Below are positions 48,586 through 55,865 of a stretch of DNA of 64,000 nt, one piece after another. Both the position numbers and the translations under genes were made by a program. The notes under the pieces are model-generated. The model was not told the origin of the DNA. It saw nothing but the letters and a program-made list of their open reading frames with translations, and searched no databases. Source of the stretch: Alphaproteobacteria bacterium MarineAlpha5_Bin12. GTDB taxonomy: Bacteria > Pseudomonadota > Alphaproteobacteria > HIMB59 > GCA-002718135. The stretch covers positions 64,230 through 128,229 of the forward strand of contig PTKS01000005.1 of the NCBI GenBank assembly GCA_002937855.1, given 5' to 3'. Numbering within the stretch: the stretch's first letter is position 1; every line of letters begins with the position of its first letter.

Positions 48586-48897
48586 TTATACTCCTGCGTT
48601 AAATTTAATTATTGTCATAATGTAAGTTATTAAAGTAACAAGAAAAATTAGAGGCATTATATTTTGTCGTTGTATCATCAATTCAAAGGTTTTAAGAATT
48701 GATATTCTAGTCATAATAATGTGTAGAATTATTCTAGCCACAAGAAGATAAAAATAACATTCAAGTAATAGACTTGGTTTAAGGGGATTAAATTTTCTCC
48801 ATCTTCTATAAGCAAGTATAACATAAAATTTGTATACTTTTTCAATCCATGGTAAATTTTTTTTATCTTGTTTTATTCTTTTTAATTTTGTTGTCAT
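48586..48897 (-). CDS. Hypothetical membrane protein, last gene of the minus-strand island operon
   Basis: 103 aa. Basic N-terminus followed by two to three hydrophobic segments. 4-nt overlap with the upstream DUF2130-type gene. No family recognised. Confidence 0.4.
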   Translation of the reverse strand: MTTKLKRIKQDKKNLPWIEKVYKFYVILAYRRWRKFNPLKPSLLLECYFYLLVARIILHIIMTRISILKTFELMIQRQNIMPLIFLVTLITYIMTIIKFNAGV

Positions 48898-50009
48898 TTT
48901 TTTTGGGGACTTGGTAATTCCAGTTTCTCGACATTTTTTATAGAATTCCCAGCAATACCTTTTAAAGACCCATAAATATTTGACGTACTTTTTATGATCG
49001 TTGTGTGTAGTTTCTCTCTTTTAGACCATTGTGTATTAAAGGATCTTTTTTCAGATTCTAGATCTTCTTGAAGCTTAATGAAGCTATTTACTATTGTCTC
49101 GACTTCATTACGAAATTCATGACTGATTATGTAATTATACATAAGAGAAGTTTTATTGGTTCTGTTTTTTTGAGATCCTATGATATTAGATACCTCGCAC
49201 GTCATAATGCGCAATGAATGAATAAGAAATTTAAATTGTGTAATGTTACATACCCATACGTTTTTTAATTGTTGTCCTGCAAGCAAATTTTTTGGAAGAA
49301 CATCAGTAACTATAACAGCAATCTGACATCCGCTGTTTTTTGCATCTTCCTTAACTTTTTCAATCCAAGAATTTTGAAATTCCTTAGCTCTTTTACTTTC
49401 TATACATATTTTACCAGCTATTTCTCCATTTATCATGACTTCATGCACAACATCAGCACCTCTTGCCCCTTTCTTTATTTCCGTTATGTTATCTTCTGGA
49501 AATTCTTTTCGCATCCATTCTTCAATTTGAATTTCCTGAGCTTCACCCTGAAGTTGCACAGAGCCTTGGCCAGCACGTTTTTGCATTTTTTCTAAATCGG
49601 AGCGTAATTGTTCTATTTTTATAGTTTTCTCTTGTATTAGCGTATCCTTCTTATCGAGCTCTAGTCCCAGTTTATCTTCATATTGCAGAGCAATCTCACT
49701 TTCCATTTCTTTATTTTTTCTCTCCAAAGACTGCATCTTTGTTTTCATTTTATTAAATTCTACTACTTTCTCAGAATAAGTTTTTAATTCTAAGTCCTTT
49801 TGTTTCATTTCTTCTTCATATTCATTAACAATTTTATTTTTCAATTTTTTTTCTGTTTCTTTTCGAGCCTTCTCTCTTTCCTGGTCAATCTTTTTGTCAA
49901 AAGTATGTTGCATTTCCTCTTGATAGGCAGAGGCTATAGCTTTTTTTATATCGACTTTCTCATGACAATGAGGACAGCGAATATGTTGAGTATCTTTATT
50001 TTGTGTCAT
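48894..50009 (-). CDS. DUF2130-type protein: N-terminal Zn-ribbon-like CPHC, long coiled coil, C-terminal PD-(D/E)XK-like domain
   Basis: 371 aa. IRCPHCHEKV, about 130 aa of K/E/Q-rich heptad-like sequence, then SVQLQGEAQE..FPED.ITEIKKGARGADVVHEV....GKICIESKRAKEF. I recognise this as the DUF2130 pattern with a D...E-S-K nuclease-fold motif. Confidence 0.7.
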   Translation of the reverse strand: MTQNKDTQHIRCPHCHEKVDIKKAIASAYQEEMQHTFDKKIDQEREKARKETEKKLKNKIVNEYEEEMKQKDLELKTYSEKVVEFNKMKTKMQSLERKNKEMESEIALQYEDKLGLELDKKDTLIQEKTIKIEQLRSDLEKMQKRAGQGSVQLQGEAQEIQIEEWMRKEFPEDNITEIKKGARGADVVHEVMINGEIAGKICIESKRAKEFQNSWIEKVKEDAKNSGCQIAVIVTDVLPKNLLAGQQLKNVWVCNITQFKFLIHSLRIMTCEVSNIIGSQKNRTNKTSLMYNYIISHEFRNEVETIVNSFIKLQEDLESEKRSFNTQWSKREKLHTTIIKSTSNIYGSLKGIAGNSIKNVEKLELPSPQKK

Positions 50010-50010
50010 T

Positions 50011-50115
50011 TTAAAAGAACCATTTCATTAAGAAGTAAATTAAAACAACAAAACCAATGATAGAAATTATAAACGACAATGCACTACCAAAAAGACCAAA
50101 TATGAAGTTTAACAT
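50011..50115 (-). CDS. Unlisted 34-aa single-pass TM peptide (MLNFIFGLFGSALSFIISIIGFVVLIYFLMKWFF)
   Basis: Own translation. Its ATG overlaps the upstream stop as TAATG (50117-50113 on the minus strand). Its TAA stop (50013-50011) sits 1 nt before the DUF2130 ATG (50009). The ORF exactly fills the apparent 105-nt gap. Confidence 0.5.
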   Translation of the reverse strand: MLNFIFGLFGSALSFIISIIGFVVLIYFLMKWFF

Positions 50116-51068
50116 TATAATTCCTCTTGCATTTTTTTAGAGAAACAACTGAAATGAATAATAGTTTCATCTAACATAAGTATTGTGGCACAAATATCTT
50201 TATTATTAATTGTAAATAATTGACCCAGGCCAGAATTTTTACACTGTTTGGCAATAGAATTATTTGCATTAAAAATAATATTATTTGCATCTTTTATTGT
50301 TGGTATTAAATTATCTCTTTTTCTATTTTCCATTTCATCTAATGCATAACTTTTAAGTATTTGTGGATATAGTGATTGGAAAATATTTTTATTTGAAAAT
50401 AATTCAAAACCTAGAATATTTTTACCTATTGCAAAAATAACACCTATTGCATCTTCAGGCATTGTAAGATGCTTAAGATAATTTTCCATTAATAGTTCAT
50501 TATTTTTATAGAGATCTTGCATACTTTCACTTGAAGAGTAAGTATCAAAAGAATTAAATTTTTTATTTATTTGTTCCCATGTTTGTTCCTGATCTGCTGC
50601 TTCATTATAGTTTGAAGAAATATCTTCATCTATATTTTTTTGCATTTTTTCCATTTTTGCAAATCTACCTTTTGCAAACATAGAAGAATTTCGTGAAGCA
50701 AATTGTCTAGATGTTCTACTCCATCTACCTTTTTCACTGCAAAGAACATTTAGTTTCATTTTTGTTATTCCAGGAATAATAGAAGATACTGTTGCAATTC
50801 TATTTTGCTTTAATTCAAAACCAGCTATTGTTTGACCATCAATGATAAAAATTGGAGTAGTATGAAAATTTTCAACCTCAACTTCAGGTACATATCCTTC
50901 ATCACTAATTTCAGTAATTTTTAAATTATTTTCATTTAAAGCTTTTGTAAAATGAGTAATATTTTGTTTAATATTTTCACCTATAATGGGGAAAACACTC
51001 AAGTTTTTATAGGTTTTTAAAGTACCTATTGAAATTTTTTCAAGTGTATTGTTATTTTTTTTCATCAT
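50115..51068 (-). CDS. DUF6569/ARPP-1-like protein, first gene of the minus-strand island operon
   Basis: 317 aa. The N-terminal pattern NLSVFPI...F(T)KALNENNLKITEISDEGYVPEVEVEN....PIFIIDGQTIAGFELKQNR......IP....KLNVLCSEKGRWS matches my memory of this family's conserved core (L.VFPL, V.E.v.N, ll.dGE.l.GakQnR, v.C.E.gRW). Confidence 0.6.
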   Translation of the reverse strand: MMKKNNNTLEKISIGTLKTYKNLSVFPIIGENIKQNITHFTKALNENNLKITEISDEGYVPEVEVENFHTTPIFIIDGQTIAGFELKQNRIATVSSIIPGITKMKLNVLCSEKGRWSRTSRQFASRNSSMFAKGRFAKMEKMQKNIDEDISSNYNEAADQEQTWEQINKKFNSFDTYSSSESMQDLYKNNELLMENYLKHLTMPEDAIGVIFAIGKNILGFELFSNKNIFQSLYPQILKSYALDEMENRKRDNLIPTIKDANNIIFNANNSIAKQCKNSGLGQLFTINNKDICATILMLDETIIHFSCFSKKMQEEL

Positions 51069-51140
51069 TAAGTATTTTCTGTTAATCTTAACAATAAAAA
51101 TTTTTTTTTGATATTCTAGTGGTAGAAAGAAATTTTTTAT

Positions 51141-51165
51141 TTATTATTATTATTATTATTATTAT
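51141..51165. repeat. Perfect trinucleotide microsatellite (TTA/ATT), about 8 units
   Basis: Direct reading: ttattattattattattattattat, ending at the ATG (51164) of the ATPase gene. It lies inside the 95-nt divergent intergenic region. Confidence 0.9.
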
Positions 51166-53416
51166 GATTGAGAAATTTCAAATAAGTAATTTTAAAGGAT
51201 TTAATGAACCTTTATCTTTAGATATTGCACCTATTACACTTATTTTTGGACCTAATAGCGTTGGAAAATCTTCAATTATTGAAGGTTTGCAAATGATAAA
51301 ACACAGTGGTCCAAATGATCTACAAACATATCTAGAAAATAGACTTGATCTTGGAAGACCAGATGAAATTCTCTCCAGGCAAAATAAAAGCATTAATCCA
51401 AACATTACGTATTCATTTTCTTTTAATTATGCAGGTTTGAATAAACCAAAAGGACCACTTCTTAATAATCTTGAAAGTATTGGAATTAAGAAAAATTTTA
51501 ATCTTACAAAAGATAATATTTATGTGAATAATAAAATTTCTATATTATTTAATAAAAGATTATTTTTTTCACTTAAACTGGGATTCAAAACTAACAAACC
51601 TGAGGAGGTTGAAAAATTAAATCAATTAGAGGGTAAAATAGATTTAATTGATTTAGTACAAATTACTGACAGAATTCCAGAAAACGATCCTTTTTGGAGT
51701 ACATCGCAGCAAGCAGTTTTCACTATAGACACAATTAGTGATAATGATGAGTACTGGGATGATATTTTAAATTTTTTAACTAGAAAAAACATAAGTACAG
51801 AAATATCTAATAAAATTGACTTTGTTATTAATGAAAGAAATCAGAATTCAAGATCTAAGGAGATTACAAAAAGTGAATTAGAGACTTTAATCAAACAATA
51901 TAATGAAAATATAAATTTATTAAAAAAAGGAAATAAAGAAATAATAAATTTTATAAATAAAGTGATTATTGAAAAAGAGTTTAAAGATTTACCTTATAAA
52001 AAATATTTATTAAATTATTTAATCAATAATAAAAAATATGTAAAAAGTGATAAAATTATTTCTCTATTAAAAGAAAATGAAGATACAGTTCCTAATTTAA
52101 ATAAAAAAAGTAATCTTTGGGAGATGGTGACAAATGATTATATTGATAATCTAAATTTAATTAATCAAAAGGAAAAAAATGAGAAAGAAATATTAAAATA
52201 TCTAATCGAAGATATTAACAACAAACTTATCGCAGATGTTGGACTTTCATTAATAAGAGGCGTGACAATAAAAGGTGATAAGGAATATAAATTTGACATT
52301 AATGACGAGTTAATCAACGCTCAATTACAAGCTTCTTTAGATGAAGTAAAAAAAAATGTTGAGAAAATAGATGATATTAATTATTCTATTTCAACTGAAA
52401 ATAGTGATACTTTTAAAGATTTTTCTATAAAAAAACTTAGAGACATTAATATTTTAATTAGTGCATGGTCAAGAACATTACAATTAAGTCAAGAATTAGG
52501 TCCTACGGGTAGAAAAGAAATTAAATCTTCAATCATAAAAGATATTAAACGTAATCTTATTATTGAAGTGGAAGTCAAAGGTTCGGAAAAACAGAGAATT
52601 TTTTATTATAGAAAAAAAAATACACTAATTGATCTATTTACATTAGCAATTGAATCAAATAATCGTAAAGTTGATAATCTATTTCCCAATCTAGAAGAAA
52701 TTATTGATCATTGTGATTCTTTGATAGAAGAAAATCTTGGCAATTTTACTTTTGTCCCATGTTTTCGAAGTTATGAGAGAGTTTATAGATCTACAAGAAA
52801 ATCAATATCAGCAAATCTTGACATAAGTACTTCTACTGCAGATCTTGTCGAAACGTTATCAAGAGATAAGGAATTACTAAAAAAACTTAATGATTGGTTA
52901 AAACAATCAACGCTTAATTCTGAAATTGTTATAGAAGAAGGATCAGATTCAAGAATCATGTATGTCATAGAAGGAGAGAATAAAGTTAAAATAAATATTG
53001 CAGATGCTGGCTCAGGTATTCGAAATTTAATTCCTATCATTGCTGTTATCATTAACGCTAACAGAAAAATTCATCCCTATAGACGAAAAGGAATGGAGAC
53101 AAAGCCTATAATTGCCTTAGAAGAACCAGAGGTTAATTTACATCCCAGACTTCAAATTGATTTAGCAAGCTTTGTTGCAAATTTTAGTAATAAAAGAGAT
53201 TTTATTATTGAAACACATAGTGAGCTGATGATGAGAAAAATTCAACAACTTATAAGAGATAAGGAATCAAATCTTACCTATGAAGATGTTAAGGTTTATT
53301 GTGTTAGAAAAAACCAGGAAGGACATTATGTTGATGAAATAAGAATTGATAGCAATGGAAAGTTTCTTGATGAATGGCCTCATGGTTATTTTAATGAAAG
53401 AATTGAACTTCTGTAA
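51164..53416 (+). CDS. ABC/SMC-like (AAA_15/AAA_21-type) ATPase with very long inter-motif insert and DUF3696-like C-terminus
   Basis: The N-terminus FQISNFKGF...LIFGPNSVGKSS (Walker A at about 51248) is typical when translation starts at ATG 51164. Walker B/D-loop IALEEPEVNLHP lies at about 53111, with H-loop ETHS. The tail G.FLDEWPHGYFNER is DUF3696-like. About 610 aa of K/E/N-rich sequence separate Walker A from Walker B. The track start GTG 51119 is probably upstream of the real start. Confidence 0.8.
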   Translation: MIEKFQISNFKGFNEPLSLDIAPITLIFGPNSVGKSSIIEGLQMIKHSGPNDLQTYLENRLDLGRPDEILSRQNKSINPNITYSFSFNYAGLNKPKGPLLNNLESIGIKKNFNLTKDNIYVNNKISILFNKRLFFSLKLGFKTNKPEEVEKLNQLEGKIDLIDLVQITDRIPENDPFWSTSQQAVFTIDTISDNDEYWDDILNFLTRKNISTEISNKIDFVINERNQNSRSKEITKSELETLIKQYNENINLLKKGNKEIINFINKVIIEKEFKDLPYKKYLLNYLINNKKYVKSDKIISLLKENEDTVPNLNKKSNLWEMVTNDYIDNLNLINQKEKNEKEILKYLIEDINNKLIADVGLSLIRGVTIKGDKEYKFDINDELINAQLQASLDEVKKNVEKIDDINYSISTENSDTFKDFSIKKLRDINILISAWSRTLQLSQELGPTGRKEIKSSIIKDIKRNLIIEVEVKGSEKQRIFYYRKKNTLIDLFTLAIESNNRKVDNLFPNLEEIIDHCDSLIEENLGNFTFVPCFRSYERVYRSTRKSISANLDISTSTADLVETLSRDKELLKKLNDWLKQSTLNSEIVIEEGSDSRIMYVIEGENKVKINIADAGSGIRNLIPIIAVIINANRKIHPYRRKGMETKPIIALEEPEVNLHPRLQIDLASFVANFSNKRDFIIETHSELMMRKIQQLIRDKESNLTYEDVKVYCVRKNQEGHYVDEIRIDSNGKFLDEWPHGYFNERIELL

Positions 53417-53418
53417 AG

Positions 53419-54579
53419 ATGATTTATAATTATGCACTTACACATTATTGTTGTGAATCAGCAGTATTTGAGGAAAAAACATTTCAAAACTTAGTTAATC
53501 TTTTCCAAAAAACAAGGGATGAAAATATAATTTTAATTATAGATAAAAACAAATATTTAATTGATTGTTTGTTAAAAGGTTTAAAAAGTTATTATAAAAC
53601 TAGTTCTGATGAATATTCATATTTTACTGAAATTTTATTGACTTTAGATGATAAGAATAAAATTTATAGACATGATTTTATTTATGATGAAAATAATGTA
53701 AAAGAATTTATTGAATCAATTAAGAGTTCAGGAATTATTATAGATGCGATAATTGTAGACAAAGAAGAAGAAAATACATTTAAAAACGCAATACCTATTG
53801 AAAAGTTTTCTCTAGAACATCAAAATGATAAAGAAAGAATTACAGTAAATAAAAATGGTATCAACCTTATAGATCATGAAATCAATTCACTTGATACAAT
53901 TTATCAAAGAATTGTCTGGGATTCTGTTGTTTTTAAGTATTATGATTATAATTTAGGTAATGGAACATTTAAAACTGAAGAAATTCGAAATCTTGATTTA
54001 ATAAAAAACAACTCAGAGAATGAATCTTCCAAATGGAAAATTTTTAATAATGATATTACATCGCACAAATTAAGACAAATTAATAAATTTAAATTAGGAT
54101 TTCAAAATCTTATAAAAGCTATAAAATCCATAAGTAAAAAAATTAAAAAAGAAAAAAATGTCTTAATTGAGGTATTCACACCTCAACCTTTAAAAAATTT
54201 AAAATCACTAAATGCTGAAGATAAAATTAAAAATATGCAACAAAATCTTTTAATGCTTCAGCTTTTAGACGAAAAGATATGTAGCGAGATTCAAGAGGAA
54301 AATATTAGTTTAAAAATTTATTTTTATGACTCTTTATTAGATGGAAAAAGTAAATATGGTAGCGCCGAACATAATCGTCTGTTTTTTTCCTTGTCTTCCA
54401 ATCAAATTGATGTTGCAAAAGGCCTTGATATATATGACTTAAAAACAAAAGAAATTCAGCAAGGAAAATGGCGTTTTTTAGGTTCTAAGGAAGATACACA
54501 ACAGGACATAAGCAACAGAAACCCATTAGATATAAAGAAATACAAAGAAAATATTGAACATTATTTGGGAAATTTATAA
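53419..54579 (+). CDS. Hypothetical protein, tightly coupled partner of the ATPase (no recognisable domain)
   Basis: 386 aa ORF starting 2 nt after the ATPase stop. I found no nuclease, Toprim, HNH, TIR, Sir2 or TM motif. Coding status is supported by length and coupling only. Confidence 0.5.
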   Translation: MIYNYALTHYCCESAVFEEKTFQNLVNLFQKTRDENIILIIDKNKYLIDCLLKGLKSYYKTSSDEYSYFTEILLTLDDKNKIYRHDFIYDENNVKEFIESIKSSGIIIDAIIVDKEEENTFKNAIPIEKFSLEHQNDKERITVNKNGINLIDHEINSLDTIYQRIVWDSVVFKYYDYNLGNGTFKTEEIRNLDLIKNNSENESSKWKIFNNDITSHKLRQINKFKLGFQNLIKAIKSISKKIKKEKNVLIEVFTPQPLKNLKSLNAEDKIKNMQQNLLMLQLLDEKICSEIQEENISLKIYFYDSLLDGKSKYGSAEHNRLFFSLSSNQIDVAKGLDIYDLKTKEIQQGKWRFLGSKEDTQQDISNRNPLDIKKYKENIEHYLGNL

Positions 54580-54638: not shown

Positions 54639-55457
54639 ATGTATAATTCAATAGCGGGCCAGCTGCGGGTCCCAGAGCCTCTTAAAGATGAACTTGGAAA
54701 GAAATCCAAGGAACCTCTATTATCATATCAAGAAGAGATCGATTTATTCAATAAATATAGATCTTATAATGATAAAAAAAGTTACGAGAGAATATTTTTT
54801 TCTCATATAAGGCTAGTCAATAAATTTGCTAAATTATTTGCAAAATCTAATCCTGAGCTATTTTATGAATTACAAAGTGAAGGTTTTAAGGGGTTAGCAA
54901 TAGCTATAAAAAAATTTGATATTTCAAAATCTAGACTCTGTACATATGCTTCTTATTGGATCCTTCATTCTATTGATACATTTTTTGTCCAAAATAACTT
55001 TGGTAATATTCATCTAGGAAAAAGCTTTACAGAAAAAAAAGTTTTTTATTTGTTAAAAAAATCTTTTATTGAACCAGATAAAATCAAAGAAGAAGATTTA
55101 ATAAAAATTGCTAAAGAAAATAAATTAAGTGTGGCAAAAATTAAAGATATAGTCGCACTAATTTCATACAATCATTTAAATGCAGAAGATGTATCGGTGA
55201 TTGATGATAGACCTAATCAACTTGATAATATAATTACAAAAGAATCATTTAACATTAATTTAAAAATTTTTAAAAAAAGAGTATCTGAGTTAAACAAGAG
55301 AGATAAAAGAATATTTGAGAAAAAACACTTTTTAAATAAAACATATAAAGAAATAGCCAAAGAAGAGGGTATTTCTTTTCAGCGAGTTAGTCAGATAGAT
55401 AATAGAAGTATTGATAACCTTAAATCACAACTCAAAAACTGTTATGAGGCTGCTTAA
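54639..55457 (+). CDS. Sigma-70 family RNA polymerase sigma factor, divergent RpoH (sigma-32)-like
   Basis: 272 aa, collinear with RpoH. Region 2 is IRLVNKFAK...ELQSEGFKGLAIAIKKFD...YASYWILHSI. An RpoH-box-like segment is GKSFTEKKVFYLLKK. Region 4.2 HTH is TYKEIAKEEGISFQRVSQIDNRSIDNLK. Confidence 0.75.
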   Translation: MYNSIAGQLRVPEPLKDELGKKSKEPLLSYQEEIDLFNKYRSYNDKKSYERIFFSHIRLVNKFAKLFAKSNPELFYELQSEGFKGLAIAIKKFDISKSRLCTYASYWILHSIDTFFVQNNFGNIHLGKSFTEKKVFYLLKKSFIEPDKIKEEDLIKIAKENKLSVAKIKDIVALISYNHLNAEDVSVIDDRPNQLDNIITKESFNINLKIFKKRVSELNKRDKRIFEKKHFLNKTYKEIAKEEGISFQRVSQIDNRSIDNLKSQLKNCYEAA

Positions 55458-55493: not shown

Positions 55494-55865
55494 ATGGATA
55501 ATCAAAACACTACAAATGAATTCAAAATACGAATTCTTATTTTACTTGCCATTGCTGATAAAGACTTTCATAAAGATGAGGATAAGATGATTAAGTCTTT
55601 ACTAAAGAAACGTAATGTTGATATGCAAAATTATGAAACAATTAAAAATGAAATTTTCAATTCAGAAGATAATTTTGATAATTTATGTAGAGATTCTTTA
55701 AAAAAAATTAATAATGAAGATGATCAACAAGATTTATTAAAAATTCTTTTTTTATTATCAATGGCTGATCTAATTCTTCATGAAGATGAACTTCGCTTCA
55801 TTGAGCTTTGTGCTGTTGAATGGGGTATATATGGAAACAATTTAAAAGAAATGATTAATAATTAG
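55494..55865 (+). CDS. TerB-like small helical protein
   Basis: 123 aa. Two repeats of the hydrophobic-ADxxxHxDE pattern (LLAIADKDFHKDEDKMI and LLSMADLILHEDELRFI), as in TerB/DjlA-N type domains. Its stop lies 2 nt before the GHKL gene. Confidence 0.5.
   Translation: MDNQNTTNEFKIRILILLAIADKDFHKDEDKMIKSLLKKRNVDMQNYETIKNEIFNSEDNFDNLCRDSLKKINNEDDQQDLLKILFLLSMADLILHEDELRFIELCAVEWGIYGNNLKEMINN

Follow-up and report, generated by a model that had tools for sequence, protein, structure and literature searches.

Among the systems described so far, the one closest to the locus presented here is Menshen, reportedly introduced by Millman in 2022. Its ATPase NsnB combines an AAA_15 domain with a DUF3696 helix and has EN in the Walker B motif and a GxG signature, and its NsnC protein joins an inactive PIN-like (inPIN) N-terminal domain to a polymorphic C-terminal effector (Li et al. 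2025, PMC12065111). One of the NsnC effector types, PB-PLD1, resembles MIT_C and carries a D/E plus an HDR motif, and in AlphaFold3 models of an NsnB4-NsnC2 assembly the N-terminal domain of NsnC is clamped by two DUF3696 tails; the Menshen survey in the same work was seeded on DUF262 (PMC12065111). Two other described sets are PDC-M55, an untested three-family PADLOC candidate cassette (FAM_00005>>FAM_02935>>FAM_00004), and HEC-03, an ABC ATPase with a VapC-like PIN protein for which defence was shown experimentally, both genes being required (Payne et al. 2024, 10.1101/2024.01.29.577857). The window analysed here, i.e., the whole stretch of 64,000 nucleotides (nt) from Alphaproteobacteria bacterium MarineAlpha5_Bin12 (contig PTKS01000005.1), carries at 51164-54579 a gene for an ABC ATPase followed by a gene for a partner protein of 386 amino acids (aa). 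The pair represents a divergent form, without NsnA, of the Menshen-type ATPase/effector family and has an expanded, putatively sensing insert and possibly a sigma-like third gene. It probably constitutes a two-gene anti-phage module composed of the ATPase and a docked effector, an NsnA-less relative of the NsnB-NsnC pair.

The two open reading frames (ORFs), the 2-nt gap and the length of the second product were as given in a preliminary description of this DNA, and all the ATPase motifs quoted there were present in the translation. The ATPase ORF runs from the ATG at 51164 to the stop at 53416, and exactly 2 nt separate this stop from the ATG of the partner gene (taa-ag-atg). An upstream GTG at 51119 is also possible according to the ORF list, but the ATG at 51164 was preferred because the orthologues all begin with MIEKFQISNFKGF. 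The features of the ATPase gene are as follows.

51164..53416, plus strand: ABC (OLD-ABC/AAA_15-type) ATPase of 750 aa, predicted sensor/regulator subunit (ORF, Pfam, PADLOC)
51248..51274, plus strand: Walker A/P-loop GPNSVGKSS, residues 29-37 (translation)
51461..52723, plus strand: hypervariable middle insert, about residues 100-520 (~420 aa), proposed trigger-recognition region (alignment)
53009..53017, plus strand: G-S-G, equivalent of the signature motif, residues 616-618, a GxG variant reported for NsnB (alignment A3)
53111..53146, plus strand: Walker B/D-loop IALEEPEVNLHP, residues 650-661 (alignment)
53210..53221, plus strand: H-loop ETHS, residues 683-686 (alignment)
53276..53413, plus strand: C-terminal DUF3696-like helical tail WPHGYFNERIELL, residues 705-750 (Pfam DUF3696, sub-threshold)

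The motifs FQISNFKGF and WPHGYFNER occupy residues 5-13 and 738-746 of the ATPase, respectively. Residues G29, N31, S32, G34, K35 and S36 of the Walker A motif were unchanged in the alignment of six ATPase orthologues; LEEPE..LHP, with EE as the Walker B residues, and IETHSE were likewise unchanged among the orthologues, and so was DAGSG in the ATPase alignment A3. The Pfam search returned AAA_15 (2.1e-20 over residues 1-689), AAA_21 and a weak match to SMC_N at residues 1-42. The DUF3696-like tail named in the preliminary description was recognizable as a resemblance, but at 20.7 bits it stayed slightly under the 22-bit cut-off of the model. Among the PADLOC models, PDC-M55A scored best (1.5e-37; 127.6 bits in two stretches), followed by Menshen NsnB (3.7e-33), PARIS AriA (7e-25) and HEC-03B (2e-21), with GajA and PtuA between 1e-8 and 1e-13 and HEC-01 also among the lower-scoring matches. 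The closest solved structure was PtuA, with a marginal E of 1.3e-4. Judged by these sequence matches, the ATPase is related to those of PARIS, Septu, Gabija and Menshen. The matching PADLOC models are labelled HEC-01B and HEC-03B, whereas the paper names the ATPases HEC-01A and HEC-03A, so the subunit letters apparently differ between the database and the text.

The ATPase orthologues were 578-777 aa long, with a middle insert that varied in length and could hardly be aligned; its columns were sparsely occupied in ATPase relatives of 490-630 aa. Because the conserved C-lobe, with a Q-loop-like FVPCFRS and the GSG signature, starts at about residue 520, the variable insert was delimited to about residues 100-520 and not to the entire ~610 aa that separate Walker A from Walker B. 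The K/E/N-rich coiled-coil arm of about 610 aa proposed earlier was not upheld, as only this part is variable and a crude heptad-periodicity scan of the insert gave 0 windows above the 95th percentile of composition-matched shuffles.

No match above noise was obtained for the partner protein in Pfam, PADLOC, NCBIfam, PHROGs or the PDB sequences. This agrees with the earlier reading that it carries no Toprim, HNH or other such nuclease motif, none of which was found by Pfam or PADLOC, and the lack of transmembrane segments was also borne out (maximum Kyte-Doolittle 19-residue mean of 1.06). The PADLOC comparison foreseen in the same description was successful for the ATPase (PDC-M55A, NsnB, AriA) and left the partner unmatched. 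Direct library matches, including those of a 15-sequence partner alignment (A2) at E up to 10, were at noise level only (e.g., FRD2 at 0.0039) and were rejected. A search of 5.8 billion proteins yielded three full-length homologues (64, 45 and 43% identity), and when 1.84 billion representatives were searched exhaustively with a profile, about 15 were obtained, some of which were fragmentary. With A2 as the profile, a second large-scale search added one further homologue and no new distant family. A database protein, P0004 (392 aa, mgnify), consists of a 98-aa partner fragment (95% identical) fused to glycosyl-hydrolase and ABC-permease sequence and is almost certainly a chimeric metagenome assembly.

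Species-representative genomes were scanned with the ATPase alignment, which recovered marine relatives and then Bacteroidota, and a metagenome scan added 80 more loci. Altogether, about 100 related loci from many phyla were recovered. The 12 longest-matching loci encoded a protein of 303-353 aa that started 0-12 nt after the ATPase. The Bacteroidota downstream proteins carry DNY, TII, HDRxIxTNY and GFxLF motifs; two of them matched Pfam MIT_C (E 0.002-0.003) and two matched PADLOC NsnC weakly. In the metagenomic set, a first-pass gene of at least 200 aa, typically of 290-455 aa, was located 0-15 nt downstream in 62 of the 80 loci, and many of these partners share the kind of start seen in the window protein, e.g., MIxEYALxP. 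Most of the 80 metagenomic ATPases end with a W-P-x-G-F-F-x-E-R tail, mostly in the form WPxGFFxER..EL. Among 53 partners, four matched Pfam MIT_C (best 3.5e-6), six PADLOC NsnC (best 8e-6), six PADLOC PDC-M55B (best 1.1e-16), one BrxL (3.5e-4) and one DrmC (8.9e-3), the last two also being PADLOC models.

A hidden Markov model (HMM) built on the window family alone matched, near full length, partners from unrelated GC-rich organisms (L046, 1.5e-13; L037, 2.3e-11; L051, 1.4e-9), as well as the partners of L042, L064 and L077. An iterated partner profile (E<=1e-4) converged on 63 of the 80 partners, with all the Bacteroidota ones included. The profile was confronted with 611 decoys, comprising the other ORFs of the loci and reversed sequences, and recruited 0 reversed or unrelated sequences; the run gained only real partner genes overlooked by ORF calling, nine of which lie just downstream of the ATPase match, with a tenth recruit (L034) falling inside the range of the ATPase match. 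By profile membership, the partner falls, as a strongly diverged protein, within a large superfamily whose genes nearly always lie directly after those of DUF3696-tailed ATPases. Adjacency of the two genes held from 64% down to 22% partner identity, and the co-occurrence of partner homologues with DUF3696-type ATPases that the preliminary description had looked for was found in all the recovered loci except one, a 1.9-kb contig (L009). The gene preceding the partner homologue P0011 on that contig (L009:3-194) overlaps it by 4 nt, and its C-terminus, ...KYGFLIKHGKKLKLPK, is unlike an ATPase tail; L009 is either a true exception or an assembly chimera. No relatives were found on the viral contigs or plasmids searched. 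The features of the partner gene are listed below.

53419..54579, plus strand: partner of 386 aa, predicted to be the effector subunit, with a PIN-like N-domain followed by an MIT_C/PLD-like C-domain (ORF, AlphaFold2 model, superfamily membership)
53419..53868, plus strand: N-terminal alpha/beta domain, roughly residues 1-150, resembling PIN and probably lacking catalytic activity (AlphaFold2 model, Foldseek)
53872..54576, plus strand: C-terminal MIT_C-type phospholipase-D-like (PLD-like) domain, about residues 152-386 (hhalign, superfamily profile)
53944..53946, plus strand: D176, an Asp predicted to belong to the active site and located behind the first PLD strand, FKYYD-YNL (conservation)
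54370..54378, plus strand: H318-N319-R320, HxR motif equivalent to HDR of MIT_C/PB-PLD1 (conservation)
54421..54429, plus strand: G335-L336-D337, equivalent to GRGLD of MIT_C (conservation)

The motifs kept in A2 (FKYYD-YNL, a TPxP strand, [FY]xD, H[ND]R and G[LA]D[IL]) resemble EVWIEDPYI, IHLLTS, IHDR and GRGLDYF of MITD1, a eukaryotic cytokinesis protein. The MITD1 sequence used was an exact match to PDB 2YMB, and its C-terminal domain represents the MIT_C family (PF16565) of the PLD superfamily. The MIT_C profile is shallow (effective number of sequences 1.6), as a large search with the MITD1 C-domain gave vertebrate orthologues only. The alignment of a 72-sequence superfamily profile of the partners with the MITD1 C-domain family by hhalign extended over 125 columns with a probability of 95.2% and an E of 2.8e-8 and took the register that had been predicted, and 12 reversed or shuffled controls gave P 0.04-0.6. 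Residue D176, aligned with the D of EVWIEDPYI, is D in 71 of the 72 superfamily members; H318 is H in 67 and R320 is R in 70, and the register of the HxR motif was identical in three independent hhalign runs. Conservation of the third motif was lower, with G at the position of G335 in 65 and D at that of D337 in 46 of the 72 sequences. In common with the MIT_C domain of MITD1 and the BrxL C-terminus, the window partner has the PLD-like fold with D placed behind the first strand and with the HDR/HNR and GxGLD motifs, although its sequence identity to MITD1 is about 13%. On the grounds of the pooled-profile alignment with its clean controls and the conservation of the triad, the partner is assigned as an apparently PIN-like domain joined to an MIT_C-type PLD-like domain with a near-invariant D...HxR triad.

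A first AlphaFold2 model built from four sequences was too poor for use, with a pLDDT (the score predicted for the local distance difference test) of 58, and the model built on A2 reached a pLDDT of 80.3 and a predicted template modelling (TM) score of 0.80. Its N-half is Rossmann-like, with the topology beta-alpha-beta-alpha-alpha-beta-alpha-beta, and its C-half is rich in beta-alpha-beta-alpha-beta elements. In the structural comparison envisaged in the preliminary description, Foldseek found nothing in the PDB at E<0.001. The match of top probability was the PIN protein PAE2754 (1v8o; probability 0.85, TM 0.50 on the target, E 0.09); a phospholipase D (7wu1) was matched with a probability of 0.38, and the BFVD viral structures gave generic Rossmann-like matches only. 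The 1v8o entry is the same one that was cited for the N-domain of NsnC (PMC12065111). The first PIN acidic position corresponds to T8 in the window partner and is D/E in only 30 of the 72 relatives, the acidic positions of the N-domain being partly conserved across these sequences. The PIN-like domain is probably without catalytic activity.

Set beside Menshen, the window ATPase resembles NsnB as an AAA_15/OLD-ABC ATPase with a GxG signature (GSG) and a DUF3696-type C-terminal helix. The partner resembles NsnC of the inPIN plus PB-PLD1 type in its position directly downstream, its apparently PIN-like N-domain and its MIT_C-like PLD C-domain with D and H(D/N)R. Partner and insert regions are highly polymorphic, as in Menshen, and related partners match the NsnC model. 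In contrast to NsnB, the Walker B of the window ATPase is EE (LEEPE) and not EN, and the protein is about twice as long (750 aa versus a 345-position profile), with its insert of ~420 aa. Unlike NsnC, the window partner itself was not detected by the PADLOC NsnC model, and unlike in Menshen, a sigma-like gene follows it.

Several observations weigh against the assignment to an NsnA-less Menshen relative with a PLD-type effector. The window has no gene for NsnA (ParB-DUF262 + ParBDB), by which Menshen is recognised, since no DUF262/ParB gene was found near the pair: DUF262 was not detected by Pfam in the 10 neighbouring genes, no window ORF of at least 100 aa contained DGxQR in a crude test, and DUF262 occurred in 0 of 17 same-strand upstream genes of related loci, three of which code for RAMP-superfamily proteins. 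The match to an already named system, which the preliminary description had considered as a possible refutation, was therefore partial, with the components mapping to NsnB and NsnC and NsnA being absent. The window family (A2) aligned alone with MITD1 took the expected register with a P of only 0.004-0.007, and its alignments with MIT_C or with the Bacteroidota partners were suggestive (P 0.003-0.007); the MIT_C link became convincing only once the downstream partners of related ATPases had been pooled. The N-terminal half looks PIN-like with weak support from the structural model. The phosphodiesterase role of the C-terminal domain is putative, and it may instead bind membranes or lipids, as MIT_C-type domains, PB-PLD1 and MITD1 are not known to be catalytic.

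Of the other described sets, PDC-M55 shares with the window only the ATPase, for which PDC-M55A is the best-scoring model, as the partner has no PDC-M55B match. The PDC-M55B matches obtained with related partners were considered as a sign of the window partner's superfamily, and this was rejected after clustering, which placed them, in all probability, in a clade linked to DUF262. One cluster of six partners stands apart, has a DGxQR (DUF262-like) gene behind it, was not recruited by the profile of the window partner and, the counts being equal, is probably the source of the six PDC-M55B matches. In L069, L073, L079, L089, L090 and L100, the ATPase is followed by a partner of about 300-350 aa and then by a DGxQR (DUF262-like) protein of about 530 aa, and this clade is probably PADLOC PDC-M55. 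The DUF262-like gene is located downstream in this clade and upstream in canonical Menshen.

HEC-03 is likewise a two-gene set of an ABC ATPase and a PIN-fold partner, and its PADLOC model matches the window ATPase at 2e-21. However, the HEC-03 partner is described as an active VapC-like PIN RNase, whereas the PIN-like domain in the window appears to lack conserved acidic residues, the conserved site of the partner lies in the added PLD-like domain, and the partner does not match the HEC-03 model. PARIS, Septu and Gabija use ATPases of the same superfamily and the same logic of an ATPase oligomer that holds or regulates a nuclease, but the tail and the partner of the window pair differ from theirs. 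No Toprim/DUF4435 (AriB) match was found in the partner or its neighbours, and no HNH (PtuB), fused Toprim (GajA) or UvrD helicase (GajB) domains were found; the window ATPase ends in a helical tail and not, like GajA, in a Toprim. In the absence of a Toprim, HNH or helicase partner, the pair was ruled out as PARIS, Septu or Gabija.

A mechanism can be proposed by analogy with the NsnB4-NsnC2 models, the structures of PARIS and Septu and the validated ATPase plus PIN pair of HEC-03. The ATPase tail is the predicted docking site for the N-terminal domain of the partner, as in the AlphaFold3 models of NsnB4-NsnC2 (PMC12065111). Dimers or tetramers of the ATPase would keep the effector in an inactive state, its PIN-like N-domain being clamped by two of the C-terminal tails, and the fast-evolving insert would recognise a phage-derived trigger. 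The binding or hydrolysis of ATP may then lead to the release or activation of the PLD-like domain of the effector, whose site would cleave phosphodiester bonds, most likely those of nucleic acid. Such cleavage would stop the infection, and the cell itself would probably be lost in the process. A role in the module, or in its regulation, is possible for the sigma-like gene further downstream.

The pair sits at the head of a conserved defence island in AT-rich marine Alphaproteobacteria. The window is very AT-rich, and its GC content falls to 24-26% over 50-56 kb. Downstream of the pair lies a complete Mza system with a C5 methyltransferase, and the nearest neighbours are listed below.

48894-51068, minus strand: DUF2130 and ARPP-1, upstream neighbours, divergent from the ATPase
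51069..51163, no strand assigned: divergent ARPP-1/ATPase intergenic region, in which the motif tctagtggtagaaagaa is conserved at 51115-51131 and an (ATT)7 run occupies 51143-51163 (sequence)
54639..55457, plus strand: sigma-70-family protein of 272 aa (RpoH-like, far below cut-off), possible third component/regulator (Pfam, NCBIfam)
55494-55865, plus strand: TerB-domain protein of 123 aa, between the sigma-like gene and MzaB

Every locus that was long enough had the shared order DUF2130(-), ARPP-1(-) and, divergently, ATPase, partner, sigma-like, TerB, (RE_AspBHI_N), MzaB-E, (Vsr), (EcoRII-C), Dcm; the syntenic genomes were single-cell or metagenome assemblies labelled as uncultured marine Alphaproteobacteria. 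Across the island copies, identity to the window was 55/43/42/41/33-34% for the ATPase, 64/45/42/31/26% for the partner and 56/45/42/33/30% for the sigma-like protein. These three diverge in step and faster than the flanking genes, with the plus-strand genes falling to 26-35%. The identity of DUF2130 and ARPP-1 was about 57-63% in all island copies, with the exception of DUF2130 in the closest copy, L003 (76%), and this sequence pattern suggests that the two genes form a separate, slower-evolving unit.

The main alternative, a possible one but with the odds clearly against it, is that the locus represents an undescribed three-component system in which a sigma-70-like protein replaces NsnA next to the ATPase and the PIN/PLD effector, and that, more broadly, NsnA-less ATPase plus PIN/PLD pairs make up a large unnamed phylum-spanning defence family. 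The sigma-like gene, with Pfam Sigma70_r2 and r4, was found after the partner in every island copy, 36-120 nt downstream (59 nt in the window), with an identity that tracks those of the ATPase and the partner while ARPP-1 and DUF2130 stay at about 60%. Its product scored 83-92 bits with the NCBIfam RpoH models, the cut-offs of which are 241-323, and scores so far short of the RpoH/RpoS cut-offs mean that the protein is no housekeeping sigma factor; with phage sigma factors it showed a generic similarity of 24-27% only. The sigma HMM also matched the gene directly after the partner in the AT-rich loci L064 (4676-5566) and L072 (3524-4468), both without ARPP-1, TerB or Mza and the former with RmuC upstream. 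The order partner-then-sigma recurs in these two unrelated loci, the ATPases of which belong to a different clade from that of the island in a crude neighbour-joining tree, and in L009 (1281-1886), where the preceding C-terminus is not ATPase-like, the link between partner and sigma-like gene was kept. The sigma-like protein may in this case act as a sensor or decoy monitored by the ATPase, e.g., as bait for phage anti-sigma or RNA polymerase-hijacking proteins; it may otherwise be an output arm, a dedicated sigma factor that redirects transcription, e.g., towards the TerB-Mza genes, or a dedicated alternative sigma factor controlled by the ATPase-effector module. However, such an arrangement was seen in AT-rich marine loci only, and no sigma-like gene was found in about 70 other ATPase-partner loci, so the pair is evidently able to stand alone. 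Only two independent extra cases speak for it, with modest statistics and a crude tree, the spacing of 59 nt is less tight than that of 2 nt between ATPase and partner, and no precedent is known to us. If the sigma-like gene does function in the system, it would be an unusual kind of immune component.

It is less likely than the three-component arrangement, and on the whole improbable, that the pair, the sigma-like gene and TerB belong to the downstream Mza system (MzaB-E with the C5-methyltransferase) as accessory or embedded genes and are not an independent module. The marine Alphaproteobacteria copies all keep ATPase-partner-sigma-TerB-MzaB-C-D-E-(Vsr)-(EcoRII-C)-Dcm in this order on a single strand, which is consistent with such a role, the whole plus-strand block diverges together and no terminator-like site was found between the genes; ABC-ATPase pairs are, moreover, typically embedded in other defence systems (10.1101/2024.01.29.577857). 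Yet this order is confined to a single chromosomal locus of a single lineage and can be explained by common descent, the relatives of the pair occur in other phyla without Mza, TerB or ARPP-1, and embedding is generally read as the co-location of independent systems. The TerB gene was kept in all island copies and was not found beside relatives elsewhere.

The preliminary description had proposed that a known sensor or motor chassis is combined here with a novel subunit acting as effector or conferring specificity. The chassis was corroborated, but a subunit without a known fold is very unlikely. No library model matches the 386-aa protein itself, only about 15 cluster representatives were present among 1.84 billion and Foldseek found nothing in the PDB at E<0.001, which would all fit a new fold; however, profiles link the protein to the partner superfamily and from there to MIT_C/PLD, it has the conserved D...HxR triad, and its architecture is that of the published PLD-type NsnC. 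A protein invisible to standard annotation libraries was thus placed in the Menshen PLD-type effector class through its ATPase neighbour and transitive profiles, and this placement removes the claim of a new effector fold. A long-arm SMC/Rad50-like DNA-handling ATPase (Lamassu/Wadjet-like) or a housekeeping DNA-repair pair, suggested by the weak SMC_N match and the distance between the head halves, can be dismissed almost entirely, as the insert is hypervariable in length and gave no heptad signal in the crude scan, the best matches are OLD-ABC-type defence ATPases and not SMC, and there are no kleisin/KITE or Mre11-like partners.

ATPase plus PIN/PLD pairs without a ParB/DUF262 sensor are common in the approximately 100 loci (Bacteroidota, Alphaproteobacteria and many metagenomes), and none of the defence models searched recognises them as a system. 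They would offer a clean test of the ATPase insert as the sensor. The island itself is conserved and fast-evolving and belongs to very AT-rich, small-genome marine Alphaproteobacteria, the defence repertoires of which are little studied.

The divergent region between ARPP-1 and the ATPase contains, upstream of the ATPase, the motif tctagtggtagaaagaa, which is common to L001-L003. The (ATT)7 microsatellite abuts the ATPase ATG; the full run is specific to the window, with a shorter run in L003 and none in the other loci. Promoter and terminator scans were uninformative in such AT-rich DNA (50 sites found versus 44.8 expected). ARPP-1 stands for the ARG and rhodanese-phosphatase-associated protein (Iyer et al. 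2022). The ARPP contexts given in PMC9503650 do not include a pairing with DUF2130.

Related pairs were also seen in other contexts. Proteins of about 650 aa from the RAMP superfamily (CRISPR-type; best 6e-18) are encoded immediately upstream of the pairs at L035:1635-3581, L036:30-2015 and L047:532-2490, and one upstream gene in the metagenome set matched WYL/WCX. In the Cytophagales loci L021 and L024-L027, a helicase-like gene of about 450 aa (ending ...YTGVTRAR...) precedes the pair, with a divergently oriented regulator of about 320 aa also located upstream. Carboxylicivirga fragile (L020:2625-8902) carries two tandem ATPase-partner pairs, of 711 + 330 aa and 689 + 348 aa.

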